IMG/VR virus record: IMGVR_UViG_3300045999_013278
Location: 1-64,000 of that record
DNA from: a virus
Strand: one strand, 5' to 3'
Length of the DNA: 64,000 nucleotides
Below, in pieces: positions 1,892 through 57,296 of this stretch. Made by a program: the position numbers and the translations under genes. Numbering within the stretch: position 1 is the first letter of the stretch; each line of letters begins with the position of its first letter. Under the pieces are notes generated by a model. That model was not told where the DNA came from, made no database searches, and was given only the letters and a program-made list of their open reading frames with translations.

Positions 1892-1920
1892 ATAAAAAAC
1901 CCGCCATTTCTGACGGGTTG
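1892..1920 (-). terminator. Rho-independent terminator
   Basis: AACCCGTCA-GAAA-TGGCGGGTT followed by TTTTATT on the minus strand. Confidence 0.75.
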
Positions 1921-2243: not shown

Positions 2244-2609
2244 TTATTCTATCCACTCTAAAAACTCTATTTTCATCTTTACAGATTGCTTGAACAGTCT
2301 GTAGTCAAACTTAGATGACAGCATCAGGTTCGATTCATAGGGCTTTATGCCTTTACACCAACTAACAGATATGTGAGGATATTTGTTAGCGCAGGGAATA
2401 TGATCAGGAAGTTTGACAGCTACAGCTTGTATTTTGCCGTTCCAAGCTTCATATAAAGTTGTGGCTTGGAACTCTAAACCCTCCCACTCTTTCCAGTCTT
2501 GGCGGCCAACCCCAAACTGGAGTGTTGTATGGTGGGGACTCCCCACGGGGTAGAGTGGGGAAATTATTAGGGGCGACTGGATAACACCCCACAGGATACC
2601 GTTAGTCAT
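2244..2609 (-). CDS. 2H phosphoesterase (cyclic phosphodiesterase-like)
   Basis: Two Hx(T/S) motifs, PHHTTL and PHISV, about 50 aa apart. Confidence 0.65.
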   Translation of the reverse strand: MTNGILWGVIQSPLIISPLYPVGSPHHTTLQFGVGRQDWKEWEGLEFQATTLYEAWNGKIQAVAVKLPDHIPCANKYPHISVSWCKGIKPYESNLMLSSKFDYRLFKQSVKMKIEFLEWIE

Positions 2610-2967
2610 CTAAAGACACTAACGAATATACAATCCTTGTTTTTATGTCGGTACTTTGTTCTGTTAGTGGTAAGTCCACTAACTCGGAATCAAACAAACT
2701 GACTTTGATTCCTAAGTTTGTTAACTTAATTAAAGTCAGTCCCGTGACTGAAGAGGTTATTATTTGATCGCCTATGTTTAAGGCGATTTTAATCGTGCGG
2801 ATTATATCTTTATCATCGTAACAATATTCTATCTCTTCGACAATTAAATAATTTCCTTCTTCCAAATAAAGGTCGAAAGTATTACCTTGACTTTCTCGCT
2901 CGTAGGAAAAGTCGGGATTAATCCCGAAAAGTTCGTTAAACTCTTGTGAAATAAAAGAATAAATCAT
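2602..2967 (-). CDS. Hypothetical protein (start MIYSF)
   Basis: AGGAG RBS at 2973-2977; the longer ORF start overlaps the ribozyme. Confidence 0.65.
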   Translation of the reverse strand: MIYSFISQEFNELFGINPDFSYERESQGNTFDLYLEEGNYLIVEEIEYCYDDKDIIRTIKIALNIGDQIITSSVTGLTLIKLTNLGIKVSLFDSELVDLPLTEQSTDIKTRIVYSLVSLDD

Positions 2968-2997
2968 TGTTACTCCTAAGTGGGTGTATGTAAAGTG

Positions 2998-3065
2998 ACT
3001 TCCCACGACTACCGGGGTGGTAGTTTCGGACGGTAGTCAGCCGTCCATCATCAGGTGGGTTGAAG
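2998..3065 (-). ncRNA. Type I hammerhead ribozyme
   Basis: CCCAC-CUGAUGA-U-GGACGG(cugacua)CCGUCC-GAA-ACUACC(acccc)GGUAGU-C-GUGGG; three stems pair; predicted cleavage after GUC between 3007 and 3006. Confidence 0.9.
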
Positions 3066-3386
3066 CTAAAAAGTAAAAGGTTGCCAGCCCGGCTTTATCC
3101 TACGCCTTTTGAGACTTTCTTCTTCTTCTTTTAATTGTTCCTCTAAGAAATGTCTGGAATAAGTATCCATCCCGTCTTCCATTACAAAGGTGTCGCCCAA
3201 GGGGGCGCGTTCTATTGGAGTCAGTGGTGTCAGCCACTCATGATCATGATCCACTTTTCTCAACTCCCCAGCAAATTTTAAGCTGGGTGACTTGTGCTGT
3301 CCTATGTAATCTTTATTACTTACTGTTACGTAAGCATACGAAATCAAATGATAAGTATATCCATCTACTACCAGTATTGTTTCCAT
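3066..3386 (-). CDS. Hypothetical protein
   Basis: 106-aa ORF in the minus-strand cluster. Confidence 0.65.
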   Translation of the reverse strand: METILVVDGYTYHLISYAYVTVSNKDYIGQHKSPSLKFAGELRKVDHDHEWLTPLTPIERAPLGDTFVMEDGMDTYSRHFLEEQLKEEEESLKRRRIKPGWQPFTF

Positions 3387-20954: not shown

Positions 20955-21206
20955 CTAATAAGTATCGTGTCCTAATGTTTTACCTTTCGGCTCAGGTCTG
21001 TTAACCCGCCATTTTTTAACATCTTGCGGGAGAAATTTTTTAGGAGCGTTTCCATTCCAAGAAGCCATCACATATCTTTCTTCTAGATTTACTCCCATTA
21101 TCGTTACCTCAAATAAAAAGTTTCTTTTAATGGTTGTCTTGCCCATTCTTTGACGCTCAATACTAAATACAATTTGCCCCGGTTTTAGTCTGTTTATGCT
21201 TGCCAT
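20955..21206 (-). CDS. Hypothetical protein
   Basis: ORF in operon. Confidence 0.6.
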   Translation of the reverse strand: MASINRLKPGQIVFSIERQRMGKTTIKRNFLFEVTIMGVNLEERYVMASWNGNAPKKFLPQDVKKWRVNRPEPKGKTLGHDTY

Positions 21207-21538
21207 AATCCTAAAATCTTACCTGCTTCTTTTAATTTCTCTAAAGGGATATCGTTAAAGTTTTTGTTTTTAACTTTCCAATTAAACTCGCGCCTAAAGT
21301 TTTTCTCCTGCCAATCTTCTTTAGTAAGAAAAATTGTTATGTAATAGCTAAGTCCGTAATGAGGGAAAGTTATGGTTAGGGGAAGCCGTTCTTCTCTACC
21401 CTCCACCATAATGTAAAAAAATTTAGTCCCCACTTTTATGATTGGGGTGTAATATTCTGCTTTTACTTTATCATTTCTGCCATCCTTTGTGACAATATAT
21501 AGCTTGTCACCAACTTTTAACTTTAACTTTTCTGCCAC
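21194..21538 (-). CDS. Hypothetical small beta-barrel-like protein (similar to 60071-60475)
   Basis: LKVGDKLY...KVGTKF. Confidence 0.6.
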   Translation of the reverse strand: MAEKLKLKVGDKLYIVTKDGRNDKVKAEYYTPIIKVGTKFFYIMVEGREERLPLTITFPHYGLSYYITIFLTKEDWQEKNFRREFNWKVKNKNFNDIPLEKLKEAGKILGLWQA

Positions 21539-22651: not shown

Positions 22652-23911
22652 TTAATTTAATTTAATTCTCGCTACGATTGCCAAAGATCGTCTACTGAGT
22701 TGATCAAGTGATAGACTCAACCTTCCCGATACTTTTCTTAAAATATTAGCTGCTCCGTTCAAATCTGCATTTACGAATGAACCATCGCCCGATTCATACA
22801 ATCCACGCTTAACACGCTTTCCTGATGCTTTCCACCCGTCTGGTTTTTGACCATAAACAGGTAGGGAGTCTCCATCGAGAAAACTAGCTTTTGATGTATA
22901 AGCCTCTTCGGTTTCTTGAAATCTAATACCGTGTAAATCGCATAGTTGCATCAGCCGGGTTTTGAGTTTACCTAACGGCATTTGGACAAACTTTTGATTA
23001 TTAATTCGCCCCATGTTAGCGTTAGATTTAAAACCCTCGTTCCAACCAATAACTAATGTACCAATGCCGTATTTTAAGCAATGATCAATAATTAATTTTG
23101 CAGCTTTATTAACACCATCCCGCATTTGATGGTTACGTTTACGGGTTACACAGTCTAACCAATTGTCCCAATAATCCCCCGGTTTCCCTTCTTTTCGTGT
23201 TGATACTTTTTTATTCCAAAGCTGGTTCATTGACTTCATCGAACGGGCATCAATCAAGAGGGAATTACCCAATGTATCAACACAAGCTGCTAAATTATCA
23301 GCCGTTCCCAAGTCAATAGATAGAGCTTGATTAATGTCTAAATCATGCTGTTGTTTCTCAACTTCGTAAGACATCTCTAGATAAAAAGCACCGTTTTTAG
23401 GTAGGATAGTAAACTCCTTAACATGAGCTATATCTAAATTTGACGGCATCGGTAGAAAAAATTCAGAAATTCCAAACCATCTTTTAACCGTTAGTCCCAA
23501 CGAAAATCTAAGTTGTCCATTAACTAGAGTTGGTTTCTGTCCTCCACTATGAGGATAAGCAACCTTGAAAAGTTTAGAACCTGTTAGATAGCCGGGTACT
23601 TTAGGCTTAAAGTGTAATTGTCCTTTGATAAACAAAGAACGTAATTCTTTAAAAGATTTGAAGGCTTCTGTTACAGATAATAAAGTTTGTTGTGCGGGGA
23701 TAGATGGCATCGATTGAGCAACCATAGTTTTAGACACTGAAGGCTCGTAAATCAAGTCGAACTTACCCGTTAACAACTTTCCAGTTTTTAAAAATGTTTG
23801 TCTAGCGAAATAAACACCACTGTTATACAGCTTCCCTGACTGCTGACAGAGATATTCTAATACTGCCTTTGTTTCATTATCGGGAGACAACAAAACCTGT
23901 TGTACTCCCAT
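22652..23911 (-). CDS. tnpB: TnpB RNA-guided endonuclease (no Zn-finger cysteines seen)
   Basis: LYNSGVY HTH, SIDLG, EEAYTSKAS, NADLNGAANI; start may extend to 23965. Confidence 0.92.
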   Translation of the reverse strand: MGVQQVLLSPDNETKAVLEYLCQQSGKLYNSGVYFARQTFLKTGKLLTGKFDLIYEPSVSKTMVAQSMPSIPAQQTLLSVTEAFKSFKELRSLFIKGQLHFKPKVPGYLTGSKLFKVAYPHSGGQKPTLVNGQLRFSLGLTVKRWFGISEFFLPMPSNLDIAHVKEFTILPKNGAFYLEMSYEVEKQQHDLDINQALSIDLGTADNLAACVDTLGNSLLIDARSMKSMNQLWNKKVSTRKEGKPGDYWDNWLDCVTRKRNHQMRDGVNKAAKLIIDHCLKYGIGTLVIGWNEGFKSNANMGRINNQKFVQMPLGKLKTRLMQLCDLHGIRFQETEEAYTSKASFLDGDSLPVYGQKPDGWKASGKRVKRGLYESGDGSFVNADLNGAANILRKVSGRLSLSLDQLSRRSLAIVARIKLN

Positions 23912-24020
23912 TGCTTTTTTATTTTTTGCCACCAAGTTACGATTTATGAGAAGTTGACTTCTCAAGAATAATTGATTAAGCTAGTATTGTCAATAGCTAT
24001 CAAGAAAACAACAAGAGAAT

Positions 24021-24422
24021 ATGTTAACGCAAGAAGACTATAAAACCCACAACCACGTTAAATTCCTGGTTAATTACCATTTTGTTTGGATACCTAAACG
24101 ACGGAAAAAAGTTTTAGTAGGAGAAATAGCAACAAGAGCGAGACAGATTTTTGCTGAACTGGCTATAGAAAAAGGTTGGGATATTTTAGCTTTAGAAGTA
24201 GCTCCAGACCATATCCACTTATTTATTAGCGTTAAGCCCACAGATACCCCACATTTAGTTATCAAGGCATTTAAAGGTCGTTCTAGCTTCTACTTGAGAA
24301 AAGAATTTCCCCAATTAAAAAAACTACCGTCTCTTTGGACAAGTAGTTATTTTATAAGCACCGCAGGGAATGTTAGTAGCGAATCCGTGAGGAGATATAT
24401 TGAAGACCCGCATCACGGTTAA
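24021..24422 (+). CDS. tnpA: IS200-type Y1 transposase
   Basis: YHFVWIPKRR, PDHIHLF (HUH), KGRSS, LWTSSYF, YIE. Confidence 0.95.
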   Translation: MLTQEDYKTHNHVKFLVNYHFVWIPKRRKKVLVGEIATRARQIFAELAIEKGWDILALEVAPDHIHLFISVKPTDTPHLVIKAFKGRSSFYLRKEFPQLKKLPSLWTSSYFISTAGNVSSESVRRYIEDPHHG

Positions 24423-30862: not shown

Positions 30863-32335
30863 ATGCTAAAAACGTACACGGCACAGCACAAACCCAATCA
30901 GTTAATTTACGGAAGTGGACAAACTGCGGTAATTACGGGATGGGCAGTAAAAGAAACCCTACGCAAGCACTTAAAAGATAATGAATACGCTGTAATTGGA
31001 CAGCTATACTCACCTACTAGAGGTATCAACTTACTAATTCGTAATTTGTTACTAAATCCTCATGTGCGGTATTTAGTTATTCTCAACGCTACTAAAGAAG
31101 ATAAAAACGCGGGTGCTTGTCAATGTTTAGGTGATTTTTTCCGTTATGGTGTAGAAGCAAGTATTAGTGATACCGGGCGAAAATCTTGGGTAATTCGTTC
31201 TTTAATTCCGGGTTATATTGATATTGATATTGATATCAATGCTTTAGAAAAATTACGGCGTTCTGTAGAAATTCAAGACGCAATATCAATTTCTGATGCT
31301 GTTGAAAAAATCCAATATTATGGAAATAAAGAAATAGTTGCACCCTGGGGAACACCTGTAGAATTTCCCATGACGACAATTGAACCAACAGTTTTTCCAG
31401 GAACACGATATGGACATAGAATAGAAGGTAAAACCATTGCTGAAACCTGGGTAAAAATCATCCACAGAATTAAAACAACAGGGACAATTAGACCAACTGG
31501 TTATGATGGAAAATGGCAAGAATTGATAGATTTAATGGCAGTTGTCACCGACGAACCTGATGATTTTTATTTTCCCGAACCTAATTATTTACCAATAGAT
31601 AGGAGTTTTTTAGAAGAATATATTTCGCAAATATTAGATGATGCAATTAATCAAGAAGGGGTAAAATACACCTATGGACAAAGGTTGCGTTCTTGGTTTG
31701 GAAGAGATCAAATTGAACAGGTAATTGAAAAATTAATTGGAGAAATTGATGCTGCTAGTGCGGTCATGACTTTATGGGATGTTAAAGATCATGAAAAAGG
31801 TGGTAGTCCGTGTTTAAATCATATTTGGTTAAGAGTAGTTGATAATGAATTATCATTAACTGCTGTTTTGAGAAGTAACGATATGTTTGCAGCTTGGCCA
31901 GCTAATGCTATGGGATTGAGGGCTTTACAAAAACATATTAGAAATGAGATTTGTCAACGTTCTCAATATGATTTGAAACTTGCTCCCTTAATAACCTTGA
32001 GTCAGTCTGCTCATATTTATGATGATACTTGGAGTAATGCGGAACAGCTAATTAAAGAACAATATTCTGCAATTTGTAAAAAATTAGATTATTATGATCC
32101 TGCGGGTAATTTTTTAATAGAAATAGCAGATGATAAGATAGTTGTTACCCATACAACCCCTGGAAGTGGTGAAATTGTCGGTTGCTATTCTGGGAAAAAT
32201 CCTTTGAAAATGATTAAAGAAATTTGTGCTGCATCCCCTTCGGTGTGTCCAGATCATGCAGGATATTTAGGTATGGAATTACAAAAAGCCAGTGAGTGTT
32301 TAACAAACGGTATTGAATACATCCAGGATAGGTGA
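30863..32335 (+). CDS. thyA: Thymidylate synthase with extra N- and C-terminal domains
   Basis: YTYGQRLR, SPCLNHIW, RSNDMF..WPAN, SAHIY; C-terminal HAGYLGMELQKA (DUF4346-like). Confidence 0.85.
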   Translation: MLKTYTAQHKPNQLIYGSGQTAVITGWAVKETLRKHLKDNEYAVIGQLYSPTRGINLLIRNLLLNPHVRYLVILNATKEDKNAGACQCLGDFFRYGVEASISDTGRKSWVIRSLIPGYIDIDIDINALEKLRRSVEIQDAISISDAVEKIQYYGNKEIVAPWGTPVEFPMTTIEPTVFPGTRYGHRIEGKTIAETWVKIIHRIKTTGTIRPTGYDGKWQELIDLMAVVTDEPDDFYFPEPNYLPIDRSFLEEYISQILDDAINQEGVKYTYGQRLRSWFGRDQIEQVIEKLIGEIDAASAVMTLWDVKDHEKGGSPCLNHIWLRVVDNELSLTAVLRSNDMFAAWPANAMGLRALQKHIRNEICQRSQYDLKLAPLITLSQSAHIYDDTWSNAEQLIKEQYSAICKKLDYYDPAGNFLIEIADDKIVVTHTTPGSGEIVGCYSGKNPLKMIKEICAASPSVCPDHAGYLGMELQKASECLTNGIEYIQDR

Positions 32336-34256: not shown

Positions 34257-37200
34257 TTACCTATCATATAAACCACCTCTATTTAAGCTACCTCCAGGAC
34301 GACGCTCTTGCTTGATTGTCTCCTGGATTTTTGCTTCTAAAGCTTTTTCAAACAAGGCTTTGTTAATGTTGCCGTTGCCACCCTCGCTATTATTAATGTT
34401 CACGTTAGGCGTAATGTTAATCGTATCTCCACTTCTTCCTACGTTATTAATATTCCCTAAACCTTCACCTATCATACCGCCGCTACTGAAACTCTCCAAT
34501 TTATTACTACTGTTTAGTTGATTCCATAACTTAGTTTCTTTTGGAGTTAAAACCCGTTCACCTTCGTTAGCGATAATTAAGCGTGGGTTAAACCCACTTA
34601 TCGCCCTTTCCTTGTTTAATAAATCCCCAACCATTCCGCCTTTAGCAAAACTAGGGAGCGTAGCTGAACCAAAGTCTAATCCGCCGTCTAAACCACCTAA
34701 GCTAAAACCATCGCTAAAGTCAAATGCTCCGCTAGAACTAAATGGGATTGCGCTACTGCCTTCGAGTATTCCAAAACTACTCTCTCCAAACGCTCCAAAA
34801 ATACTATCTAGCACTCCGCCATCTTTGCTACCTGCGCCCATAATATTTTGCAAGACTAAAGCCGCTTGTTGTAGCATTGTAGCGGACACACTTAGATTAG
34901 CTCCCGCGTTATTTAAAGCGATCGCGCCCACGTCTTTAGCTTTATTGCCAAAAATAATTTCAGTTAATTTACCAAATAGTTGGTTAGACAGTTCCTTACT
35001 TGCAACAGCAGCTAAATTGCTTAAAATACTTTTTGCAATCTCGCTAAAAGCATCGACTATACTTCTTTTACTCAACTCCGTCTTTTTCTTTTCTAAGTCT
35101 CTCTGCGCTCTATCTAATTCTTTTAGTTGTTTGTTATTGCCAGAATTTTGGTATGCGTTTCTTACTTCCTGAATATTACCGGACGTATTCATTATAATGT
35201 CGCGGCGTTTCTTAGCAATCTCATCTAGGGATTTATTAATATCCTGTAAATCGCCAGCGTTTTTATTAACAGAGTCGTTCATGAAAAATCCCTTTAGGAT
35301 ATTGTCAAAATCTCCTTTAATTCCGCTAATAGCCTCGGTGAACATATTAAATTCTTTCGCAACATTGTCTAGTTTTAACTCGTTTAGCTTAAGTAAATTT
35401 TCACTAAGTACAGATATTTCTTCTGCTGAATAATTACTTGATAATCCTAGTTTAGCTATTTCGTTTTTTTCCTTCTCAAAATCCATCTTAATTTGTGATA
35501 AAAGCTGTGCTTTTTGCAATTCCTTGTCTCTAACTCCGAACAAACCCCGACCTCTTATTATCTCGGAAGAAATTGCACTACCGGATGAATTTAATTTTTC
35601 CATCCTGCCGAGTTCAATGCCTCTATTTGTAATCGGCGCGAGCTTAGTTTGGTAAGAATTTTCTGCGTCAAGGTTAGATTTTTCTTTTCCGTAATTACGG
35701 AAAGCTTTTAGTCGTTCTATTAATTTTTCTTGTGGACTAAGTAAGGCGTTACCTTGAATTTCCAATAATTGTTTCTTGTAAGCATTAGTTAGCTCGTTAG
35801 TTTTTATTGTTAATTCATTGGTTAAGCTGACTAAACTAACCATCCCATCCTTATTGTCAATCGCAAACCGTTCATTGTCTAGTTGCAATGATTTCATTTG
35901 CGAGGCTTGGATAGTTTGCGATTTAGTTAATTCAATGCCTCTATTTGTAATCGGGGCGAGCTTAGTTTGGTAAGAATTTTCTGCGTCAAGGTTAGATTTT
36001 TCTTTTCCGTAATTACGGAAAGCTTTTTGTCGTTCTATTAATTTTTCTTGTGGACTAAGTAAGGCGTTACCTTGAATTTCCAATAATTGTTTCTTGTAAG
36101 CATTAGTTAGCTCGTTAGTTTTTATTGTTAATTCATTGGTTAAGCTGACTAAACTAACCATCCCATCCTTATTGTCAATCGCAAACCGTTCATTGTCTAG
36201 TTGCAATGATTTCATTTGCGAGGCTTGGATAGTTTGCGATTTAGTTAATTCGTCGTTAGCTTGCTTAATTCGCTTAACTGTATCGGCATAATTAAAGTTA
36301 AGATCAACGCCCTCTCTTTTAACAGAATTAACATTGAGAATGGCTTTAAATTCCTTCTGAAAAGCTGCTTCACTCATGTTACCGCCCTTACCTCCGCCAT
36401 CATAATAACGTCTTTGGAGGTCTAGTAATTGTTGGTATTGGTCACGGGTTAATTCTAGTAAGCTAATATTTCTTTGAAGTGATGGAATTTTTAAAACCAA
36501 CGGATTTAGCGGGTCAATTTCCTCAAGTTTTTGAACTAACTGTAACTGTTGTTGTAGTTGTTCAATAACTTTTGATTGTTGCGATATATCCTGCTCGCTT
36601 AATCTGAAAAACTCTTTTTTGTCAAAATCTTTCATTGACGCTTTGAGGATGCTATCAATATTGGATTTTAAAAATTTCAAGCTATTTTTAGCTTCTGCAT
36701 TTTTAAAAGCTGTAGCTTTAAAACTTAGATCGTTTGTCTGGATTGCGGCTGCGGCTAATCTCGGATCATTAGGAAATCTCTTCATTGCCAGATTAAATGC
36801 GGCTTGTAAGTCCGGTTTTTGCGCGATCGCTCCATCCGTTTCTCTAACAATTTGCTCTAACAACTCAACATCTTTCTCTAATTTGCGGCGTAATTCATTA
36901 AATTGGAGACTAAACATATCCGCATTACTCATGGTAGGAGATAAACCTTTTAACACCGTTATTCTAGTCCCTAGAGTAGAATCTTTCGTACTGCTGATGT
37001 CTCCTATCGCGGTTTTTTGAGAGGACATAATAAGCCTGTAAGCCTCTAGCCTTTGTTTTAGCTCATTTTCTCTGATTTGTTCAGGATTTAGGTTGCTGTT
37101 AGTTTGATTAGTTTGATATTGTTGGGCAGCGGTGTTTAATTTAAGTCTACTAGCTTGTGTTACCACTTCCTGCATTTGGTTGGGTTGAATACTTCCGCCT

Positions 37201-40200
37201 TGCATAACAATCTGCACCAATTGTCGCGCTGTATTGCCGTACCGATTTTCTGCTTTGGGGAGGTAATTACCTAGCGTAATATCACCATCCCCTACTCCTA
37301 ATGATGCGTTAGGATTCCCCGCAAAAACGGTAGATAAAACTTTTCGGAAGGAGTCTAGCTTTTGCCCTCTACTGTTCTGTTTTAAGTATTTCTGAACAAA
37401 GACTAATTGCTCTTGTGGACTCATTTGAGACAGAGCATCTATGTTTGTACCCAGTCCTCTAGCCGTAGCGGGCATGAACTGAATTAAACCTGTTGCGTTT
37501 GTGCGTTTGTTCCTAGCAGATGGCGAAAGTGTACCACCTGTTTCATACAGCATCGTTTTAAGTAGGTCTTCAGGGTTTGCTCCTACGCTTTGAGCTATTT
37601 TAGCCACGCTTTGCAGGAACTTGGTATCTATACGTGGATCTAGCCCTGGAACAAGCGGAACTGATTGGCGTTGTTTTGTTGGCCGTTGTTGAGGCATCGG
37701 CCAATCTGCTACCCTGTTCAGCCTCTTGTTGTCTTGTGTGGTATCAACAACCTTTTTGGTTGTATCCAATTTAATCCCAGGTACTTTAAAAGTTTTACCT
37801 AACTGGGTAGTTGGGTTTATCCTTTGACCGTTGATCGTTACCTCCCAATGTAAATGCGATCCTGTGCCACGCCCAGTGCTTCCAACTTTACCTATTACAT
37901 CACCTTGTTGTACAACGTCCCCAACCTTTTTAAGTAATTCAGATAAGTGAAAAAAGCGGTTTACAACTTTTTTACCTTCTGCGGTGATGGTTTCAACTTC
38001 GACCATATTGCCCGCACCACCATTCCAACCACCTTTAGATGTGATAACCGTGCCTGTCAGTGGTGCTTTAATTGGTGTTCCTGTAGCGTCTTCAAAATCA
38101 ACACCGTTGTGCATTTTTCTAGTGCCGTCCAATGGGTCTGTACGCATTCCGTACTTAGATGTTACGCGCCCCGGCGTAGGTCTAAGCAAAGTTTGATTAA
38201 CAGTCTGTAAATTATCCAATCCGTAGAACTTTTTGACAGCCCCTAACGGATTACTAACGAACTCTTTAGCACCCTGCTCTAACTGTTGCCCAGCTTTTTC
38301 CCCAAACACCGTGCTAACCGCCGATTGAACACCGCCCGCTAAATTTTGTAACAAGCCTTGTCCGGTAGCCAGGGAAGCTAACCAGTTGGAGGTTTTTATT
38401 CCCATATCAGCGATCGCAGTCCCCACGCGATCAAAGCCGTTCTCAAAAGACTTAACTAAATCTGCAAACTTAGTACCAAGACCTTCTATCCATGAGTTGC
38501 TAGTTTTACTTAAGTCTTTAATACTATCTTCAGCTTTTTTAGTTGCGTCTACAACACTGTTAGATAAGTTATTTATATTCTTATTAATTTCATCAACCGT
38601 CCTGTTTACGTTTTTAAGACTGAGATTAAAGTTATCGGCAATACTAGAATCTATCGGGATAATTTTTCCTGGTAAACTCCGTTGTAGTTCTATAGCTTGT
38701 AGCTGAATATCTTGGACGTTATTCTGGTAGTCAATCCTCTGTTTTCTTGCTTCTAGTTGTTGTTTCTCTATTTCGGTTGTTTGGGAAATTACATTAATAA
38801 TTCCCTCAATAAACTGAGTGTAGATATTGTCCCCAGCACCAATTAAAGCCTCTCTAAGTTTATTCTGTACTTTAGAGTTTTCAAAGGTCTTTTGTGCTTT
38901 CTCAAATTCAATACCCACAGCTTGAGATTCTCGAACGGCTGCGCGATAATAGTCGGTGACTTGCTTTGTTTGTTGGTAGAGGCTTTGGATTAAGTTATAT
39001 TTCTGCTCTGCAATTTGTTGTTGCATATCAACAGTTTGGATTTGCATTTCCTTAACTTTTATAAAGCCACTTAAAATCTCTTTTTCTTTACTTCCATCAA
39101 TACTTCTTTCTTGTGCAGCCTTTAAGGTGTCTATACCGCTTCTTTTATTTAAATTAAGTGTGCCTAAGACTCTATCTAAATCATTAACTTCCAATTGAGC
39201 GGACATCTCTTGGATTTGTTTTAAATTATCGGCAATTTTACCAGTCAGAGTGGCTTGAGTTTTTAAGTTGTTCGTATATTCCAGTTGCCCTGGTAAAACG
39301 TCCCCACTGCTGCCAAGGTTAAATAAATTAGTTTTCTCTAAACTTAATGCTGTATCTCTATATTGTCTTAGATCGTTAAACTTAGCTTCTAAGTTCCTTA
39401 TTTCAATTGCAAATTTTTGCATTTCTGTTAAGGAATTTTTAATAGCCTTAGTCATCTTGTCTTGTTCTTGAATAACTGTAGCTAAATCTTGTTCAGTTAC
39501 CTTAATTATTTTATTAATGTCGTCAATTTCACTTTGGTAAAGTTTGGGATTTTTCTTTAGTTCTTCCCAATACTCCAAATAAGTTTTTAAAGTTTCTACT
39601 TGTTTGTCTAAATTAGCTTTAGTTCCGCCAAACAATTCTAAGGGCTTTTCTCTCACCCCGCTTATTCTCTTTTCCCATTCTTGCAGAGATCTCAACGCTT
39701 CACTATTGCCGGGATCGTTGGCAATAATCGCCCGACGTTCCATTTTAATATTATCCAAAGATTTGTCTAGGAATTGAATGTCTTGGATAGCGTTTTTAAT
39801 AGCGGGAGAGTTACTATCTTTCAAAATATCGAAAGTGTTTTGTTGCCCAATAGTTGTTTGTTTGGCACTATCCTCCATTTGTTTTATTAGTTTTTTTGTA
39901 TCGTTATCAAATGGGTTAAGCGTAAATCCTTCTCTAAATGCTGAAAAGTTATCACGGCTAACTTTAGAGGATGGATTTAATAATTTTCTTTGTTCATTAA
40001 TAGACTGAGTAACGTTTCTAGTCTGTTCGCCAATTGCGCCGCTGCTATCCTTGAAATTCATCATTGTTTCATCAATAGCTTTCATCGCCATTGATAAAAC
40101 AAACATCTGAGCGGCTAAAGTTGCAATACTTTGACTCATTCCCAGCAATGCACCCTTAGCCCCTCCCGCAGAGAATAAAATTCCTTTTAAATACGTCGCA

Positions 40201-43200
40201 AACATTAACCAAACAGGACTTCCTAATTTAATTAAGGTAATCAGTAAGACACTTTTTAAGAGTTGGAGATTCTTAGTTACTAAATCTATACCAGACGCAA
40301 AAACACTTAAAGAAAAGTTTCTGAAAGGCAGTAAAGTTTTACCAATACTTTCCTGTAACTCAATTAAGGAATTATTGAATTTATTAGTTATCGCCACTGA
40401 AGAATTAACGGCATCTCCTACACCTGATGAAGTTTGCGCTTTTAATTGTTGAGCAAATTTTGGCAAAAAGTCCTCAGCTAAAACCCTGCCTGTACTTAAT
40501 AATTGGTTCATGGACTGGGTGGTTGTTCCGTAAGCATTTGCGGCGATTTGCGAAGCGTTGGGGATTGCTTCAGCGAGTTGTTGTCTTAATTCTTCTTGAG
40601 ATACAACCGTTTTTCCAGACATTTGCTCAAGCGCGGTAAAAGTCCTTTGCTGCTTGTCTAAATCTAAACCATAGACAGCCGAAGCTTGAGTGACTGCGCT
40701 AACGATCTGGCGAGATTGATAGCCTTCTATGGGAGTATCCTTAGTTGCCTGGAAGAATTTACTGCCACTTTCTAAAGTTTGGCTTAAGTCAACGTTGAGT
40801 CTTTTTGCTTCCGATCTTAAAAATGCAATATTTTTAGCACCCTCTGAAATGCTTCCAGAAGTGAACTTAATCCGTCTCTCTAAATTCTCAAAGTTAGCAG
40901 CGACTTCTATGCTTGCGGGAGCTAAATCTAAGATAATTTTCCCTACGGCCAACAAAGCTAGGACTTTAACAACATTACCTATAGAAGATTTAACAAAGTC
41001 CATCATCTCGCCAAATTTCTGGACTTTACTCATTCCCTCTACAAAACTATCAAAAGCCACCTTAGCCTGGATGAACCCTTCCTTAATTTTTTCTGGCATC
41101 TTAAGGAAATCTACAAATAATTCCTTAGCTGCAACAATACCGTTAGCTAACCCCTCGCCTAATGCTGCCGATACGTTAGGATTGGCGATTTCCTTAAGGA
41201 AATCTAAATAACCCTTAAATCTTTCCTTAGCTTCCTTAAATCCTGGGATACTTCCTAATCCTTTACTAAAGCCTCGGCTTAATCTTTCTTTATCTTTTTC
41301 TACGTCAGATGTAATTGTGCCATTTTCTACAGATTCTTTAATTCTGTTTATTTGTCTAATGAGCGATGGAATTATGCCATTGTTACCACCTTCTAAGAAT
41401 TGCAGACCCTTAGTGAAACCTTCACCTACGTATTTGCCCAACATTATGCCAAGTCTTACAAATGACTGGGAATTTTTCTTTACGCCATTTTCTATCGTAG
41501 ATTGTGGAACTTGGGGAATACCATTTGGTAGGAATGGGGGTAGTTGAGGGTTCACACCTCCGACGGTCGTGTTTGGAATCTTAAAAGATATAGAAGGTTG
41601 TGGAACTTGGGGAATTGGCGGTACGTAAGAATTTGGTAGGATTAGGTGACGTGAAGGATTTTGATTACTATTGGGAAGAATCAATGATTGATAAGAAGGC
41701 TGTGGAATATTTTTAGGAAGAATTGAATTGTATCCTCCTTGCGCCCATCCCATTCTGCCAGATGCAGCTAAAGTAGTTAGTGGGTTTGGCGAACTCCAGC
41801 CCCTTCCTCTTGGAAGAATTAGAGAAAAGTTAGTTACCGCATTTCCTGCACTTAAAAGCACATTTTTAAATGACTCTTGCGCTTCTGTTAACCGTACTAC
41901 ATGAGGCTGTTTTTCAGGAGGCAGTATTAGAGGCAGACCGCTTCCGGATCTTTGTCCTGGGAGTATTAAGTTATTGCCATTGTTAGAGTTGTTGTTATTA
42001 GGGAGAATTAATCCTTGGTAGGGTTTAAGAGGATTTGCCAACGGAATAGAACCGCTATATGGATTTAGCTGACTAGATGATGTAATTATTGGCGAAACGT
42101 TATTTTGTTTTTTATATTTAGCGTAGCTATCTGGAAGGATTACGGGAGACAGCCCCAAAGACCTATTTATCTCATCCGTAGAAACTACAGAAGATAAATT
42201 TTTAGAGATTTGTTTAGCAAAAGTTTTCCTTAACTCTTCTGTAGAAATGTTAGGGTTGTATAGTTTAGAGAACTCACCCGTTGGTGCTGAAAATACGCTA
42301 GTCGTTCGGGGAGAATTTAATCTTGTTGAGTCAACGCCAGAAGAAGGTTGGAGTAGTCCATTAATAGGAAGATTTGCTAAACTGCCTTTATTTATGTGCG
42401 GAAGTTTATTATATCCTGACGGTAAAACTAATCCGTTTTCTGCGCCTTTCCTTATCTCATCTACCCTTGAGGTAATTATTTTCTTAGCGTTATTTAAGGA
42501 TTCGTCCGCACCCACCCCCATAGCATTGCCTATATTTTGACCAGTTCTAATAGCCCATCTTGAGGGTGATTTAATTTCTAATTTTTCTTCTACTGTATCT
42601 ATTACTGTCTCTGCTAATTTTTCAGAAGATGTACGTAAATCACCTATGCTATTTTCTACACCTTTACTTACGCCCGCTCCTATATTTTCGCCAATTCTAA
42701 CTCCTCCATGCAACGCACTTATTCTCGCTGCTTTATTTTGAACAGAAGTTATTTGTGATAAAGAATTGCTTAGTTGTGAACTCTCTCTGCTTTTTGCAAA
42801 ATTAGGATCTATTCCTGCACTATTTCTTAATTTTGTTATATCAGCTTTGGCTTTATCTCCATACTGCTTAATCGCCGCAGATAACTCAATAACTGGAGCG
42901 AAGTTACCAGTTGTTTCTGCATCTTTTAACAGGGATCTTAGTTTAGCGAAATTAGCATTAAATTTAGCGGCTAATTCTTGCGCTGATTTTACCGCAAGCT
43001 TGGCTTTTTCTGACACCTCAATATCTTTACCGGATGTAGATTGAGTAACTGGGTTAACTCTAGTTACTTGATATCCGTTGGGGGTTGCGCTTACGGATGT
43101 AGATTGAGTAACTGGGTTAACTTTAATTACTTGATATCCCTTGGGGATTGTGCTTACTGGAGTTGGAGTATAAGATTTTTCAACAGTATAAGTTGGTAAA

Positions 43201-46200
43201 ATGGCCGTTGGTTTAAATTGTGGTAAATCCCCAACAGTTTCTTGCAGTAACGATTTGCCCGAATAACCTATCGGTATTTCTTTAGCAGGATTTAGCGGTA
43301 TAAGTAACGAAGGATCTATTTGCCTAGCTTCGGGTATGGGCAGGGCTTTTTTGTACCCTTTCTTTATACTGTTCCTTATTTTGTTAGCATCTAATATTCC
43401 CCACAATGAAATGTCTATTAAAGCTCTTTGAATAGTTGTCGCCTCATCCTCAGCTTTCTGCTTGGCAGAGGGCATAGTTGTGGACATACCTAAATCAATT
43501 GCTGATATTTTCCCAGGATCTACTTTGTTTGTTACTGGATCGATTTTATAGTCTTTAAAAAATACATTGGCGGAAGCTAGATCGTTATGAACAACACCCA
43601 TGTCTTGCATAGCCCTACCCAAACTTCCGACATAACGATAGAACTGTGAAAATATTTCATTAAATTGCTTTATATCCTTTCGGATTTGTCTGTCTAATAA
43701 TTTGTTGGCGTTTTCTAAATCCTCTATAGCTTTTTTTATTTCTTTCCTTCTCTCAGGGTTTTTTTCGTTTTCTAATTCATTTTCTAATTTCGCTATCCTT
43801 GGTTTTGTCTCTTTCTTTAACTTTGCTTGTTCTTCTTTCGAGGCTCTTATGGGTGCTGCATAGTCCTCCATAATTTTCTTCAAGTCCCTCCCTTCTATTT
43901 TTTCTACAATCATAGATTCTTTTTCGTTCGCCGCATAAAGTAACGGGGCGTATCTGCCCTGTAGTCTTTCATAAGCTTTAACTTCCTGTTTTGATGCTAT
44001 TTTTTTTGCACCTTCAGGATCTAAATCAGTTTTGTAAACCAATTTATCGGTTATCAAAGCCATAGCTCCAGACCATCCATGACCTACAGCTTTAATTTCT
44101 TTAGCGTCCGGCATCATCGGAGCTATAGTTTTAAGCATTTTATTAAACCCTAAAATTGACGCTGGGTGTTCTCTCATAGCATCCGAAATCGGTAGTTTTT
44201 TTAAGTTTAAATTTTCTTCAAAGTATTCCGATAAATTGCGAAACTCAGGACTTTGCTCAGAAGCATACTTTGGTATTTTTTCTGACCCTGGAATTGTCGG
44301 TAAATACTCAATTTTATCTAAAAAGTCAGGCGATATATTTCCTTTGGTTTTAATAAATTCTTCTTGTAACGACAGAATTACTTTAAATCCTTGAACGATT
44401 TTTTTTCCGTACTCTTCAAACTGTTTTTGTGATTCAAACCAAGGAATTGTTGCTATAGACAAATCTCGCTTGCGTTCCGCAACTTTGCCAACGTTCAGTC
44501 CGCCAGCCCACCAACCCTTATCAGGGATTGCTTTATTTTCTTTAAAAGTTTGAATAGACTCATTAATGCCACTAACTTCATCCACATACCTCATAAATCC
44601 GGGATCGGTAACATTATCCGGGAACTTAATCTTTTCCATAACGTCGGTTTTGAGATTTTCGGTAGGCAAATAATCAATCTTGTCTAAAAATTTTGGCGAT
44701 ATATTGCCGTGAGTTCTAACAAACTCTTCTTGCAGTTTTGCAACAATTTCAAGCCCTTTAATTATTTCTCTTCCGTATTCCTCGAACTGTTTTTGTGATT
44801 TAAACCAAGGGATAGTTTTTTGTGAAAGTTCTTGGTTTCTTGCAGCAACATCTTCTCTTTTCAAACCACCTGCGAAGTAAGCTCCTGGTACAACCGTTCT
44901 AGTTTTAAAAGATTCAATAGATTGATTGATAATCGATGCCTCTTGTTTATATCTTTGATATCCAGGATGAGATTCATCATTGGGCAAATCTTTCAATTGC
45001 CCTGTAGGACGTTCTGTTTTTTCTGCATTTGATAGCATTAATGTGCCAGCGTCCACAGCCTGACCTCGAAGTATGGTTGCCATTGATCTCACCTGTTCCG
45101 GCATCCGTTCGTTGGATAATTGTCCAAAAAGGTATTTAGAATCAAATAAGTTTTTTATTACACCTTGACTGTATTGCCCCTTAGAGGCTAAATCCTTAGC
45201 GTGCATCGTAGAAATGACTACTTGGTGAACCTGCAACATGAGTCTTTGCAAGTCAGACATAGTATCTCTTGATGTCTTGTCTGTAGGTAAACTACTACCT
45301 ACAGTGTCATTAAATTTTTCGACAAAACCAGGAGATCGAAATAAGTGATGTGTCGCATGAACGTTTGCCCCTGACGATCTTAGACCTGAATCATCAAGGA
45401 TGTTCATTGCACTGCTCGGATTATAAACACCTATTTTAAACGGGAAAGTTAAGGGATCTTTTTCTAAAATTGCAGATGCAAAACCTTTAGGTGTTGCATT
45501 TGATAAATTTGAAAAAGGATAAGCCATAGCTAGTGCTTTTGTCTTAGTCCCTTCATACTCCGCCGCTTTTGCATACCTGTAAGCACTTGCGCCACCAAGA
45601 GAGAAGCTGATAGCCGAAGCGTCGTTTCCTTGTTCTCTAGCCAGCCTTGTGTGAGCTAAAGCTTGAGCGGCGGCTACGTCCGATCCTAGAGGATTTAGCG
45701 AATAGGCGATCTGTCTTACCGCATTCTTTATAGTTGGAGATAACGATCCCATCCCAGGGAGAAGTTTTTTTATTAATACGTCATCAGTCCACTTATCTAT
45801 TTCAGCAGTCCTTTTGCTAACATCTGTGTCCAAATTTTCCACTGGTAACAATTTTATATTCTTCCCAACAATAGGTTCTAAGGAAGTAGCGAGTGCGCGG
45901 CCACCCTGTCCGAACTTATCCTCAGCACCCCCGATTACAGAAACCACCTTTTGTCCAGGCTCTAGTATAGGGAAGGTTGCTTTTCTTGCTTGGTAGTGAG
46001 ATTCGGACAGCTTGCTTGTATGATAGGACTGCATCCCCTGTATAAAATTAAGAATTGGTTGAACTTCTTTCATCAAAGGGAGAATAACTTTGTTCGACAA
46101 GTCAGTGGGTTGAGCTTCTTTTATGATTGTCGGAATAAATCTCCTCTTGTGTTCATCCAACGACAAGCTTGATTTTTTGGAAGAAATTGTTTCAAACTTT

Positions 46201-53912: not shown

Positions 53913-56900
53913 ATGTTTAACGAAGTTTATGCTCCGTCCGCAAAACCTGTGTTTTACCGCACTTATTCAAGAAGTAAAAAAGAGACATGGCAAGATGTTT
54001 GTGACCGGACAATTACGGCATTAATTTCTCTGGGAAAATTAACTAAGACTGAGGGTGACTTAATTAGGCGATCGCAGGAAGAATTTAAAGTATTAAGTAG
54101 TGGAAGATGGCTGTGGTGTGGTGGTACAGATTGGTTAAAAAAGCCAGAAAACGTTTACGGTGCTTATAATTGCTCATCCACAAACATTACAGACTGGGAA
54201 GCATTAAGCTTAATGATGAATTTGGCTATGCAGGGATGCGGGACTGGCGCAGTGTTGGAAGATAAATATATTAAAAATCTTCCTATTATAAGGAATAATT
54301 TAAGCGTAGAGATTGTTAATTTACCTGGCACTGTAAAAAAAGAAAACAGGCACGATGACACTATCGTTAGCGGCGCGCGCGGACAAGTTAACATTTTTGT
54401 TGGAGATAGCCGTAAGGGTTGGGTAGACTCTTACCTTACACTTCTAGAGTTGTCTTCAAGGGAAGATTTAGCGAAAAACGTTAAAGTTTTCGTTTGCTTA
54501 GGTGCGGTAAGAAGTAGTGGGGAAAAACTTAAAGGCTTTGGCGGAAAAGCTAATCCCATAGCTTTAGCTGGGATGTATGGAAAATTAGCTAAGATTTTAA
54601 ACGGGGCTATAGGTCGCCAACTTACCGCTTTAGAGTTATGCAAGTTAATTGATGAGGCTAGTGTTACAATTGTAGCCGGAAATATAAGAAGGTCGGCGGG
54701 CATGAGACAGGGTTCGCCAGAAGATATAGAGTTTGCGACCGCTAAAGATAACTTGTGGCAACAAGACAATGAGGGTAACTGGAAAATAGATCCTGACAAA
54801 GATTGCTTAAGAATGGCTAATCATACGTTAGTTTATCACCGTCGCCCAACTTTAGAAGAGGTCAAAAAAAGTGTGCAAAAACAATTCCACAGCGGTGAAG
54901 GTGCAATTCAATGGGCTGGCGAAGCGGTAGCTAGAGCTAACGTGGATTTACTCTCTAATAAGGATTTAAAAAATAAGTTTTTAGACTTATACAATAAGTC
55001 CTTAAATGAAGCATTAAATTTTTTAGCTAAGTTAGGGCTGTTGAGTATTGCTGAAGCGGAAGAAAGGATGTCTAGGTACGCTACCAACCCTTGTTTTCGT
55101 GGGGATATGAAAATATTAACTAAAGATGGTTACAGAGCATTCGAGTCGTTGGACGGTCAAGATGTAGAGATAATTAACGCAGAGGGCAATGTTTCTCTAT
55201 CTCATATATGGTGTTCAGGTGAAAAGGAAACCGTAAGGGTAGGAATGGGGGCTTATGGAAGTATTCACTGCACTCCAGATCACTCTTTTTTAAATATTGA
55301 TGGCAAAAGAGTTGACGCATCTGAATTAAGACCGGGTGACAGATTAATGCCATTCTTAAAAGTGCCAGAGCATAAGAATAAAATATTCGTTTGTTTAGGA
55401 TTTGTCCAAGGTGATGGTCAATTATCTGATTTATCTGATTTGAAAGGCGACAAAAAAGGGCAACTAGGTGTTGCTGTCAACATAGGTAAAAAGGATCAAG
55501 AAATCCTAGAATTTTTCCAAGAAACGGAAGGTTTGAAATGCAAGAAACATGGCGAAAGGCGTATTTATGTTAACGGACTGAATGAGTTAATTGACAAATA
55601 CGACTTTTCTCTTTACACCCTTCCATTTCGCGCACTCCCATCCACTTATAAAGGCTGGGACTTAGACATAAAAGCATCGTTCTTGTCTGGACTTTATTCA
55701 GCTAACGGCAGTGTTCTAAAAAACGGCAGAGTGACCTTAAAGACGACCTGTAGAGAAATGGGCGAACAGGTTGTTGATTCTTTAAAAGCAGACTTTGGCA
55801 TAGAAGCTTATATTACCATCAACCGACCGTCAACCGTATCGTTTCCTAACGGTATTTACCAATGTAGAGAAAGTTACGACGTAAATATTCAGCAATACAA
55901 AGGGAGACTTTCATTCTTCAACCAAATCAACTTTATTCATTCGTACAAGATTGATAAATTTGCCAAAACTCTCTTGGCAACCTCTCCCTCAATATCGGTA
56001 GTAGAAAAACAAGGGATTGTAAAAGTTTATGATTTTTCTGAACCAATAACGCACTGGGGTGTAGTAGAGGGCTTTGTCGCGCATAATTGCGGAGAAATTG
56101 TGGGTAACAATTTTTTCTGCGATCTCGCTGAAGTACACCTAAACACGCTAGATGGAAAAGACTTAAATAGTTTAAGAGACTCATTTAGGGCTGCGGGTTT
56201 AATTGCAGCCGTACTATTAAATGACAAATTCCCTGACGAGAGATATCAAAAATCTAGGGAGTTAGACCCTATTGTTGGCGTTAGCTTTACTGGCTTATTT
56301 GACTTTTTCGTTAATTTATTTGGGGAAAGTTGGTTGCGCTGGTGGGAAGGCGGCAGGGAGGAATACTCAGACAGAGACTTTATCACATCAAAGGATTTAG
56401 AAAATTGGATAGAAACATTCCCAGATGAGGTAGTTGAAATTATTAACGATTGGAATAAAAGCCAAGGGAAATTTGCTATAAAACACCCCGGCGTTTGCAA
56501 CGGACTACTTTTTAAAGCCTTGGAAGAATTTTACCTGACGCTTTTTAAAGATGAAGCCCATAAAGCAGTTTGGGAATACTGTCATGCACATTCGCTTAAA
56601 CGCCCCAATAGATGTACTACGGTGCAACCAAGCGGGACTAAGAGCCTCTTAACTGGCGCGTCTCCTGGCTGGCATCCTCCAAAAGCTGCTAGATTTATCC
56701 GTCGGATTACTTTTGGCAGAGACGACGCAGTAGCTTTAGCTTGTATGGACTATGGCTACGGTATTATTCCTTCCCAATCTTGTAAAGATGCTGAGGGTAA
56801 TTTATTAAACGATCCATTTGACCCAAGAGTTACGGAATGGTTGGTAGAAATTCCCACAAAAACTAGCTGGGCGGATAACATCGGGGAAGATGTAGATATA

Positions 56901-57296
56901 AGCAAATTTAGCGCAAAAGCCCAATTTGACTTTTACCTACAAGTACAAAATTACTACGCAACTCACAATACTTCAGCAACTTTGGAAATACGTCAAGAGG
57001 AAATTGGGGAATATGCACAACTCCTTTACCAGAACATCCAAAATTGTGGCGGATATAGTTCTGCGGCACTTTTGGCAAGATTTGACAGTGGCGAAACTTT
57101 CCCTCGTCTGCCATTTGAGCCAATTTCTAAGGAAAAATATGAAGATTTATGGGGAGAGGTTTTAGCTCGCCGTAAAAATAGTAGTTTTGATAAACTTTTG
57201 CAAATAAGGTTAAGCGCAGCGGAAGTGGAAGATTCTCAAGTTGGCCCGGCCGGATGCGACTCGGATAAGTGCTTATTTAAGGAAGTGGGCAAATAA
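53913..57296 (+). CDS. nrdJ: Class II (B12-dependent) ribonucleotide reductase with intein
   Basis: VFYRTYSR, SGRWLW, YNC, MQGCGTG, GNIRRSA, TNP[intein]CGEI, TVQPSGTKS, C-terminal GCDSDKC. Confidence 0.95.
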   Translation: MFNEVYAPSAKPVFYRTYSRSKKETWQDVCDRTITALISLGKLTKTEGDLIRRSQEEFKVLSSGRWLWCGGTDWLKKPENVYGAYNCSSTNITDWEALSLMMNLAMQGCGTGAVLEDKYIKNLPIIRNNLSVEIVNLPGTVKKENRHDDTIVSGARGQVNIFVGDSRKGWVDSYLTLLELSSREDLAKNVKVFVCLGAVRSSGEKLKGFGGKANPIALAGMYGKLAKILNGAIGRQLTALELCKLIDEASVTIVAGNIRRSAGMRQGSPEDIEFATAKDNLWQQDNEGNWKIDPDKDCLRMANHTLVYHRRPTLEEVKKSVQKQFHSGEGAIQWAGEAVARANVDLLSNKDLKNKFLDLYNKSLNEALNFLAKLGLLSIAEAEERMSRYATNPCFRGDMKILTKDGYRAFESLDGQDVEIINAEGNVSLSHIWCSGEKETVRVGMGAYGSIHCTPDHSFLNIDGKRVDASELRPGDRLMPFLKVPEHKNKIFVCLGFVQGDGQLSDLSDLKGDKKGQLGVAVNIGKKDQEILEFFQETEGLKCKKHGERRIYVNGLNELIDKYDFSLYTLPFRALPSTYKGWDLDIKASFLSGLYSANGSVLKNGRVTLKTTCREMGEQVVDSLKADFGIEAYITINRPSTVSFPNGIYQCRESYDVNIQQYKGRLSFFNQINFIHSYKIDKFAKTLLATSPSISVVEKQGIVKVYDFSEPITHWGVVEGFVAHNCGEIVGNNFFCDLAEVHLNTLDGKDLNSLRDSFRAAGLIAAVLLNDKFPDERYQKSRELDPIVGVSFTGLFDFFVNLFGESWLRWWEGGREEYSDRDFITSKDLENWIETFPDEVVEIINDWNKSQGKFAIKHPGVCNGLLFKALEEFYLTLFKDEAHKAVWEYCHAHSLKRPNRCTTVQPSGTKSLLTGASPGWHPPKAARFIRRITFGRDDAVALACMDYGYGIIPSQSCKDAEGNLLNDPFDPRVTEWLVEIPTKTSWADNIGEDVDISKFSAKAQFDFYLQVQNYYATHNTSATLEIRQEEIGEYAQLLYQNIQNCGGYSSAALLARFDSGETFPRLPFEPISKEKYEDLWGEVLARRKNSSFDKLLQIRLSAAEVEDSQVGPAGCDSDKCLFKEVGK
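55092..56087 (+). mobile_element. Intein (332 aa) with LAGLIDADG homing endonuclease
   Basis: Starts CFRGD, block B CTPDH, LGFVQGDG and FLSGLYSANG, ends VYDF..AHN followed by Cys. Confidence 0.93.

Follow-up and report, generated by a model that had tools for sequence, protein, structure and literature searches.

The 64,000-nucleotide stretch of viral DNA analyzed here (the window) is the first 64 kb of the 72.7-kb IMG/VR virus record IMGVR_UViG_3300045999_013278, for which the completeness estimate is 65%. Between two small genes on its minus strand, at 2993..3067, it carries a type I hammerhead. We think it likely that this is a working ribozyme that acts within a polycistronic, host-polymerase transcript of small accessory genes, in a cyanophage related to the Aphanizomenon phage vB_AphaS-CL131 (CL131), and that it is coupled to a leader that refolds after the cut. 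A broader proposal, which we hold more tentatively and at somewhat below even confidence, is that the hammerhead is half of a two-state leader module common to many phage type I hammerheads and that, in CL131-like cyanophages, it also serves as a cassette marker. In such a module the 3' strand of stem I and the tail that follows it would hold the ribozyme together before the cut; afterwards the freed strand would take a complementary box downstream and the tail would become a loop.

The sequence, the fold, the conservation, the covariation of three stems, a pseudoknot and the downstream box, and the genomic placement of the element are what the analysis shows. The element is 75 nucleotides (nt) long, the extent matched by a covariance model (R1) built from its relatives, and all of its parts lie on the minus strand. 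Stem I pairs the 5' strand CCCAC (3055..3059), which starts 6 nt after the stop codon of the upstream gene, with the 3' strand GUGGG (3002..3006). The core strand CUGAUGA (C3 to A9) occupies 3048..3054 and is followed at 3047 by an extra U, located between A9 and G10.1. Stem-loop II (3028..3046) consists of 6 base pairs (bp; 3046..3041 with 3033..3028) closed by a 7-nt loop (3040..3034). The second core strand, GAAA (G12, A13, A14 and A15.1; 3024..3027), is invariant in all aligned sequences. Stem III has 5 bp (3023..3019 with 3013..3009) and a 5-nt loop, to which the pair A3024-U3008 (A15.1-U16.1) is added. Stems II and III are closed by loops and stem I is open, which is the layout of type I. 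With U16.1 at 3008 and C17 at 3007, the scissile bond is predicted between 3007 and 3006, and GUGGG would become the 5' end of the 3' cleavage product. In the strict consensus A9 directly precedes the pair G10.1-C11.1; here the pair itself is present and U3047 intervenes.

Based on minimum free energy, an 86-nt segment folds into the three-way junction (-24.7 kcal/mol, z -2.59; 3 of 200 shuffles fold as well), and the junction is retained when 201 nt are folded, by minimum free energy and in the centroid alike. One site on the two strands of the 64-kb window matches a generic descriptor of type I elements (stems of at least 4 bp, zero or one inserted base), which gave no matches in 100 dinucleotide-preserving shuffles. 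A chance origin of the pattern is therefore very unlikely. The original prediction, made from the letters alone, had placed an intergenic type I hammerhead here, and every letter that it named is present on the minus strand; the fold, the nine related loci described below and covariation all support that assignment. Likewise, the core that it listed (CUGAUGA, GAAA, GUC) is complete and stems II and III are paired as it described. Its estimate that cleavage would fall about 40 nt before the next start codon agrees with the predicted site, which is 39 nt from the true start, ATG 2967.

Relatives of the upstream 106-residue gene occur in nine viral loci on nine contigs, and in 9/9 a hammerhead lies directly after the stop codon. 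Core variation among them is confined to N7 (U or C) and H17 (C or A), both of which are free in the consensus. In a 14-sequence alignment, the cells of the three stems and the pseudoknot are 95.7% paired, compared with 87.5% after shuffling, and 11 pairs have changed on both sides, compared with 3.9 in shuffles (0 of 500 shuffles as high). When the partners are slid, 20-55% of cells are paired. Stem I is paired in 100% of cells with 2/5 pairs double-changed, and in stem II 4/6 pairs are double-changed, the third pair appearing as CG, AU, GC, GU and UA and unpaired in locus L002. A wider, 80-sequence alignment fitted to the model (75 distinct rows) is 99.1% paired, versus 74.0%, and 14/17 pairs carry both-side changes, among them 5/5 in stem I and 4/6 in stem III. 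Across the 75 distinct rows the catalytic bases are invariant while the stems vary freely.

Model R1, built from the 14-sequence alignment, scores the window element at 95.4 bits (E 1.3e-29), and the next best site in the window reaches 10.4 bits. No second copy was found by R1 in the window (filters off) or in the whole 72.7-kb record. Five further whole records, those of four related viruses and of CL131, were searched with R1 and 5/5 were positive, with one or two copies each. CL131 has two. Its copy 1 lies between gp142 and gp141, has the extra U and shares an identical stem II with the window; copy 2 lies right after gp131, has no U and shows a C.A mismatch within stem I. Neither 'hammerhead' nor 'ribozyme' occurs in the main text of the genome paper on CL131, which states that the phage is without an RNA polymerase (PMC6293099). 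A search for the clade pattern in prokaryote genomes gave 0 matches, and no prophage or host was found in this way. Altogether, the element looks like a genuine and ordinary member of a large phage hammerhead family.

The extra U, which the original prediction had singled out, is indeed present at 3047, but it is not an oddity. Within the clade 8 of 10 copies have it. The two that do not, L003 and the second L005 copy (L005a), differ by two compensatory pair changes. We used two pattern scans, and the counts from both, as well as from the sets drawn from them, are among the matches listed. The extra-U pattern (CUGAYGA, U, a GG...CC stem II, GAAAC) has at least 122 viral loci; 126 matches comprise 90 complete type I elements, 16 of type III and 20 that are neither. 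Across 89 extra-U elements N7 is U in 58 and C in 31, and H17 is C in 82, A in 7 and never G. The second scan is blind to the insertion, fixing only a CCGC stem I strand and the core, and has at least 137 matches with 114 distinct cores. These divide into complete type I elements with one inserted base (52), complete type I elements without one (30), elements with no clear stem II (25) and incomplete ones (7). Thus 52/82 complete type I elements carry an inserted base, the base is U in 57/57 cases, and in this sample the U-form is the commoner natural state rather than a peculiarity.

An extra nucleotide at the identical place in the core is known from the plus-strand hammerhead of chrysanthemum chlorotic mottle viroid, CChMVd(+), which tolerates an A between A9 and G10.1 and stays active; a U there was reported to raise trans-cleavage 3-4 fold (De la Pena and Flores 2001, as cited in PMC3705267 and PMC1636495). 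That ribozyme is a viroid type III hammerhead in which the natural base is A and has a role in viroid folding, whereas in the phage element the base is U, it characterizes the majority of the subfamily and the context is messenger RNA (mRNA). The core insertions named in the main text of the phage hammerhead survey by Perreault et al., in the portion consulted, are A6a, U13a and 2a/2b, with none between A9 and G10.1 (PMC3088659). No report of phage hammerheads carrying a U between A9 and G10.1 turned up in the literature searched.

Covariation indicates that the tertiary contact of the element is a pseudoknot between loop II and the 3' tail. The tail AGUCA (2996..3000) can form 5 bp with UGACU of loop II (3039..3035), and at the middle position the window has A-U, L010 has G-U and L003 has G-C. 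Among the 89 extra-U elements, the best helix between loop and tail averages 4.09 bp when each loop is matched with its own tail, compared with 3.50 +/- 0.06 (maximum 3.67) in permutations, none of which reached this value (0/500). Helices of at least 4 bp are found in 65/89, compared with 41.9 when permuted (maximum 51). The original prediction had instead extended stem I across a bulge by pairing CUUC with GAAG and had suggested that this extension contacts loop II. The complementarity exists in the window, but it is not conserved (61.5% of cells paired, versus 63.9% in shuffles, with slid partners no worse), and the same tail bases appear to form the covarying pseudoknot instead.

A pseudoknot contact has been described for phage hammerheads, and for all three hammerhead topologies, in the parts of the survey that we consulted (PMC3088659). 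The pseudoknot (PK) hammerhead of the RAGATH-1 type reported by Zhan et al. in 2024 likewise combines a hammerhead core with a pseudoknot as tertiary element, but, from the text available to us, its pseudoknot substitutes for helix II and an extra helix IV is present (PMC11300833). The window element has a regular helix II, a 6-bp hairpin with a loop that pairs with the 3' tail, and this places the element outside the PK class.

Downstream of the cut, at 2980..2984, lies the box CCCAC, whose sequence is exactly complementary to the 3' strand of stem I. By minimum free energy the 3' product folds into the hairpin that the two can form (3006..3002 with 2984..2980, 17-nt loop). All clade copies have retained the box, as has CL131 copy 1, despite differing downstream genes. 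Drawing on both pattern scans together with the clade, CL131 and the window, we assembled 142 distinct type I elements, excluding elements with less than 50 nt downstream or less than 55 nt upstream and the duplicate loci L001, L008, L009, L011 and L134-L145. In this set, which is again among the matches listed, an exact complement of the product's first 4 nt occurs 3-43 nt downstream in 100/142 elements, while four controls gave 9, 12, 24 and 29. With permuted downstream regions the count is 67.2 +/- 4.0, with a maximum of 79 in 1000 permutations. When the first 40 nt of the product are folded by minimum free energy, its first 4 nt are paired in 103/142, compared with 32.5 after shuffling. 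After clustering at 80% identity the box is found in 53 of 88 clusters (controls 8 and 11).

The box also tracks stem I. Elements of the GCGG class have CCGC in 74/95 cases, and those of the GUGG class have CCAC in 20/22 and CCGC in 3/22. Twelve elements contain a wobble pair in stem I; among these the box is the 3'-strand complement in 10/12 and the 5'-strand copy in 0/12. Pairing at the level of RNA is therefore favoured over a direct repeat in DNA. We had considered that CCCAC...CCCAC might be a target-site duplication and rejected this based on the same 10 versus 0. The usual order is the stem I 3' strand, the pseudoknot tail as a loop of 4-8 nt, the box, an A-rich spacer and a Shine-Dalgarno sequence. 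A Shine-Dalgarno-like site with a start codon follows within 45 nt of the box in 65 of the 100 elements that have one, at a median of 9 nt.

Since the box covaries with stem I, the mRNA left by the cut can fold its 5' end into a hairpin beside the Shine-Dalgarno sequence. For the window this hairpin is predicted by folding, and at the level of the family complementarity and covariation support it. We infer cleavage, the fate of both ends and possible effects on stability or translation, in the following way. During transcription stems II and III would fold, and then stem I, after which pairing of the tail AGUCA with loop II would lock stems I and II side by side, with the extra U bulged out. 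The RNA would then cut itself after C17, between 3007 and 3006. The upstream message, which encodes the 106-residue protein, would keep stems II and III as a compact fold at its end, together with a 2',3'-cyclic phosphate, and the downstream message would begin with a 5'-hydroxyl and a 39-nt leader. The freed GUGGG could pair with CCCAC (2984..2980) to give a 5'-terminal hairpin two bases before the Shine-Dalgarno sequence. This hairpin would be expected to drive product release and make the cut irreversible, and to shield and standardize the 5' end of the next cistron.

No description of such a refolding hairpin was found in the literature searched. RiboJ is a synthetic insulator in which the hammerhead from the satellite RNA of tobacco ringspot virus (sTRSV) is followed by a hairpin before the ribosome site. 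On paper the phage module would work alike, with a ribozyme taking off the upstream RNA and a hairpin at the new 5' end shortly ahead of the Shine-Dalgarno sequence. In RiboJ the hairpin is a separate, added stem-loop, whereas the predicted phage module is natural, reuses the 3' strand of stem I and, in most members, has the pseudoknot tail as its loop. In the main text of the phage survey, so far as we had access to it, no downstream complement of the stem I 3' strand is mentioned, and the supplementary alignments may hold both the box and the U-form unremarked (PMC3088659).

A number of results weigh against this reading. Both pattern scans fix parts of the sequence, and many of the 142 elements are kin; based on single linkage at 70% identity, the elements form 11 groups, of which 4 have a box. 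An earlier test for exact 5-mers 11-61 nt downstream in the extra-U set gave 13/89 versus 12/89, that is, no enrichment; it left out the short loops and was superseded by the later, wider tests. For 4-mers in the far part of the region the 142-element set gave 39, compared with 29.9 +/- 3.2 (maximum 40), a weak enrichment, and the 17-nt loop of the window falls in this long-loop class. The window hairpin is also weak when taken alone, with -9.3 kcal/mol (z -1.09) for a 52-nt product and -6.1 kcal/mol for a 40-nt product. In L007-L009 the pseudoknot is weakened to 3 bp, and the unpaired position of L002 is a mismatch in stem II. Finally, the check that accompanied the original prediction, a search with the Rfam hammerhead models, gave no match. 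The models of Rfam 15 gave 0 matches at the gathering score on the window and none at E values up to 10 on 351 nt, and RF00163 (Hammerhead_1) gave none at E up to 10 on the whole record.

The Rfam result tells little, because the same models also miss L003 and L005a, which lack the U, and 20/20 other extra-U loci (16 type I and 4 type III). In total, Rfam 15 misses 29/29 family copies tried: the window element, nine in six clade loci (two of them U-less) and 19 in 20 control loci. The negative is thus a property of the models and not of the window element, although it still counts as a failed classifier test.

The module is not tied to one pair of genes. It follows the 106-residue gene in the window and at nine loci and other genes in L005a, L136 and CL131, and near-identical modules are found before at least five unrelated genes and after at least four. 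In L005 two copies bracket a two-gene cassette that encodes homologues of the 121- and 106-residue proteins flanking the window element, in the order opposite to that in the window. L136 has the outer flanks of L005 around a single copy and lacks the cassette; another copy lies one gene beyond. These arrangements hint at exchange of cassettes at the modules. The L136 copy at about 2490-2560 (minus strand) has a left flank like that of L005a and a right flank like that of L005b, as would be seen for a recombinant of two copies, and its stem II strands contain G.A/A.G mismatches at two neighbouring positions.

The literature searched yielded no account of a cyanophage hammerhead. The promoter-early stem-loop (PeSL) elements, mobile regulatory cassettes of T4-type phages, are comparable in that they too are short, conserved and regulatory and border accessory gene cassettes that vary from one related phage to another. 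PeSLs combine a promoter with a stem-loop as DNA and RNA signals without catalysis, whereas for the phage module a role in recombination is hinted at by L005 and L136. A close likeness is with the phage type I hammerheads of Perreault et al., which, in the sections available to us, share the three-way junction, the consensus core, a paired contact that links stem I with stem II and the intergenic placement (PMC3088659). In that survey, from the same partial text, hammerhead copies lie between genes in phages and prophages and flank, as one or several copies, single genes or short blocks of varying identity, and the role proposed is the processing of long phage transcripts (PMC3088659). A 2019 review, of which we consulted part, notes that processing of polycistronic mRNA has been suggested for bacterial and phage hammerheads and that more work is needed (PMC6765202).

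Other explanations of the element have to be weighed. One is that the hammerhead is a relic that has stopped cutting, with the extra U as a possible cause of slowing or loss, and is kept as a protective structure for the upstream 3' end or as a block to nucleases. That no Rfam model recognizes the element and that its core is one inserted base away from the strict consensus would fit this, and Perreault et al. considered, in the text seen by us, that some phage hammerheads are perhaps non-functional (PMC3088659). No RNA ends have been seen either: the metatranscriptome contigs aligned to the locus (4 runs, depth 2-13) miss the site and cannot show ends, as none spans 2864..3004 and just a 28-nt piece of a relative's hammerhead falls at 3016..3043. 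However, a plain pair of hairpins has no need of CUGAYGA, GAAA and a non-G at position 17, and every catalytic base stays fixed in the wide alignment while the stems change. Covariation also preserves the pseudoknot by which stems I and II are positioned, the U-form is in the majority among the matches listed from the insertion-blind scan, and U was the most active variant in the CChMVd context, according to a review (PMC3705267). We regard a relic as unlikely, and marginally less likely than a conditional switch in which the box competes with stem I before the cut, and cleavage is governed by the speed of transcription or by ribosomes that terminate 6 nt upstream. The switch, itself improbable in our view, draws on the fact that the box and the stem I 5' strand vie for the same five bases. 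It also draws on the position of the upstream stop codon, 6 nt from stem I in the window and 0-3 nt in CL131 and L005a, which is so near that a terminating ribosome would cover stem I; regulated cleavage was raised as a possibility by Perreault et al. in the text at hand (PMC3088659). Yet the hammerhead is transcribed and foldable before the box exists, both the minimum-free-energy fold and the centroid of the 201-nt segment keep the hammerhead over the alternative hairpin, and in the common short-loop form the hairpin would have to break the pseudoknot as well.

Two further explanations concern DNA and protein. The module of about 110 bp could be a junction repeat for cassette exchange in which RNA cleavage is secondary, an idea compatible with a working ribozyme. 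The near-identical copies among unrelated genes, the L005 and L136 arrangements and the presence of one or two copies per record all suit it, but a recombination repeat needs no catalytic core, no compensatory changes and no covarying pseudoknot, and the wobble test (10 versus 0) speaks against reading the flanking repeats as a target duplication. We give this explanation little credence, about half that of the switch. Least probable of all, and hardly tenable, is that the stretch encodes an N-terminal extension of the downstream protein from GTG 3006. A frame is open from 3006, and in L004 a frame begins at AUGAUGG of the core. But a consensus AGGAG sits 6 nt upstream of ATG 2967, homologues of the downstream protein begin at the equivalent of that ATG, and the frame is closed upstream of 3006 by UGA at 3039..3037. 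Unrelated genes lie behind these same nucleotides elsewhere, in L005b and L136 more than 80 nt follow without a start, and the substitutions in the stretch are paired changes in RNA helices.

The mechanical list of open reading frames (ORFs) begins the downstream frame at GTG 3006, and the frame thus crosses the ribozyme. As the start of the next gene is ATG 2967 behind AGGAG, this ORF call hides the hammerhead, just as the original prediction had argued. Similar calls are seen elsewhere. At 1830-2141 of L004 an ORF begins at AUGAUGG of the core and is fused to the next gene, and in CL131 a 75-nt 'hypothetical protein', gp130, is called over the second hammerhead (MG209611.1 98349-98423).

The genes around the hammerhead are all on the minus strand in the ORF list. 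The upstream gene (106 residues, 3066..3386, from the ORF list and its translation) ends in UAG at 3068..3066. Its protein matched no Pfam or PHROG family and has 78 homologues, every one unnamed or 'hypothetical'. The downstream gene (121 residues) occupies 2602..2967, and its Shine-Dalgarno sequence AGGAG (2973..2977) starts 2 nt after the box; the L010 and L005 homologues begin at an ATG equivalent to 2967. Its protein likewise matched no Pfam or PHROG family and has only unnamed homologues. For the flanking proteins Atlas leads score at most 0.91, with no Pfam family common to the top matches. A terminator-like site (1919..1898) and promoter-like sites upstream of the small-gene block are consensus matches alone. 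TTTACA-17-AACAAT (2994..2966) was considered as a promoter and dropped because its -10 part varies among relatives.

Two genes downstream of the ribozyme, a further 121-residue protein (2244-2609, minus strand) has two H-x-T/S-x motifs (HTTL and HISV), matches Pfam PF08302, the cyclic phosphodiesterase domain of tRNA ligase (E 1.1e-7), and shares 66% identity with CL131 gp125; its best PDB sequence match reaches just E 0.32. It looks like a small 2H phosphoesterase, judging by these motifs, and its substrates could be 2',3'-cyclic phosphate ends or cyclic nucleotide signals. A functional tie between this gene and the cyclic-phosphate end left by the ribozyme was considered and rejected, as the gene is near the hammerhead only in the window and CL131 among 13 locus stretches compared. 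In the metatranscriptome contig of a relative, aligned to the window at 2300-2512 and 3016-3043, a homologue of the 2H-like gene directly adjoins a different hammerhead, which places a ribozyme immediately upstream of this gene in the relative. The loose end of this contig is a hammerhead core without the extra U.

Elsewhere the window has the genes of a phage, including those for tail proteins, a head protease, DNA polymerase III alpha, a helicase, RecJ, thymidylate synthase and ribonucleotide reductase, and over one stretch it is 72.8% identical to CL131. An IS200/IS605-type element at 22652-24422 combines a TnpB-like gene (22652..23965, minus strand; OrfB_IS605 and Cas12f-like TNB domains) with a divergent Y1 transposase (24021..24422, plus strand). 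The ribonucleotide reductase gene (53913-57296, plus strand) is split by an intein with a LAGLIDADG endonuclease domain. One open frame of 4255 codons spans 34257-47024 (minus strand), and a 490-residue protein (30863-32335, plus strand) joins a thymidylate synthase domain to a C-terminal pterin-binding DUF4346 domain. Two proteins match PF24203, the phage ProQ C-terminal-like domain (21194-21538, minus strand, E 4.6e-11; 60071-60475, plus strand, E 2.4e-5), and are possible RNA-binding proteins.

What these results add to the known phage hammerheads is a copy in a cultured phage-host pair, a blind spot of Rfam and a predicted family-wide refolding hairpin. Since Rfam 15 misses all 29 copies, genome annotation probably overlooks the extra-U subfamily, and neighbouring ORFs are then extended through the ribozyme, as at 3006 and in L004. 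With a close copy in CL131, whose host Aphanizomenon flos-aquae is known, cleavage in vivo can be tested by end-specific RNA sequencing, and the covarying 5'-terminal hairpin by the ribosome site provides a hypothesis, testable by mutation, about what cleavage does for the downstream gene. If the two-state module exists as proposed, its hairpin would make cleavage irreversible and would protect and insulate the next cistron, a natural counterpart of RiboJ, and in CL131-like cyanophages the module, at about 110 nt, may mark where accessory gene cassettes are gained, lost and reordered.

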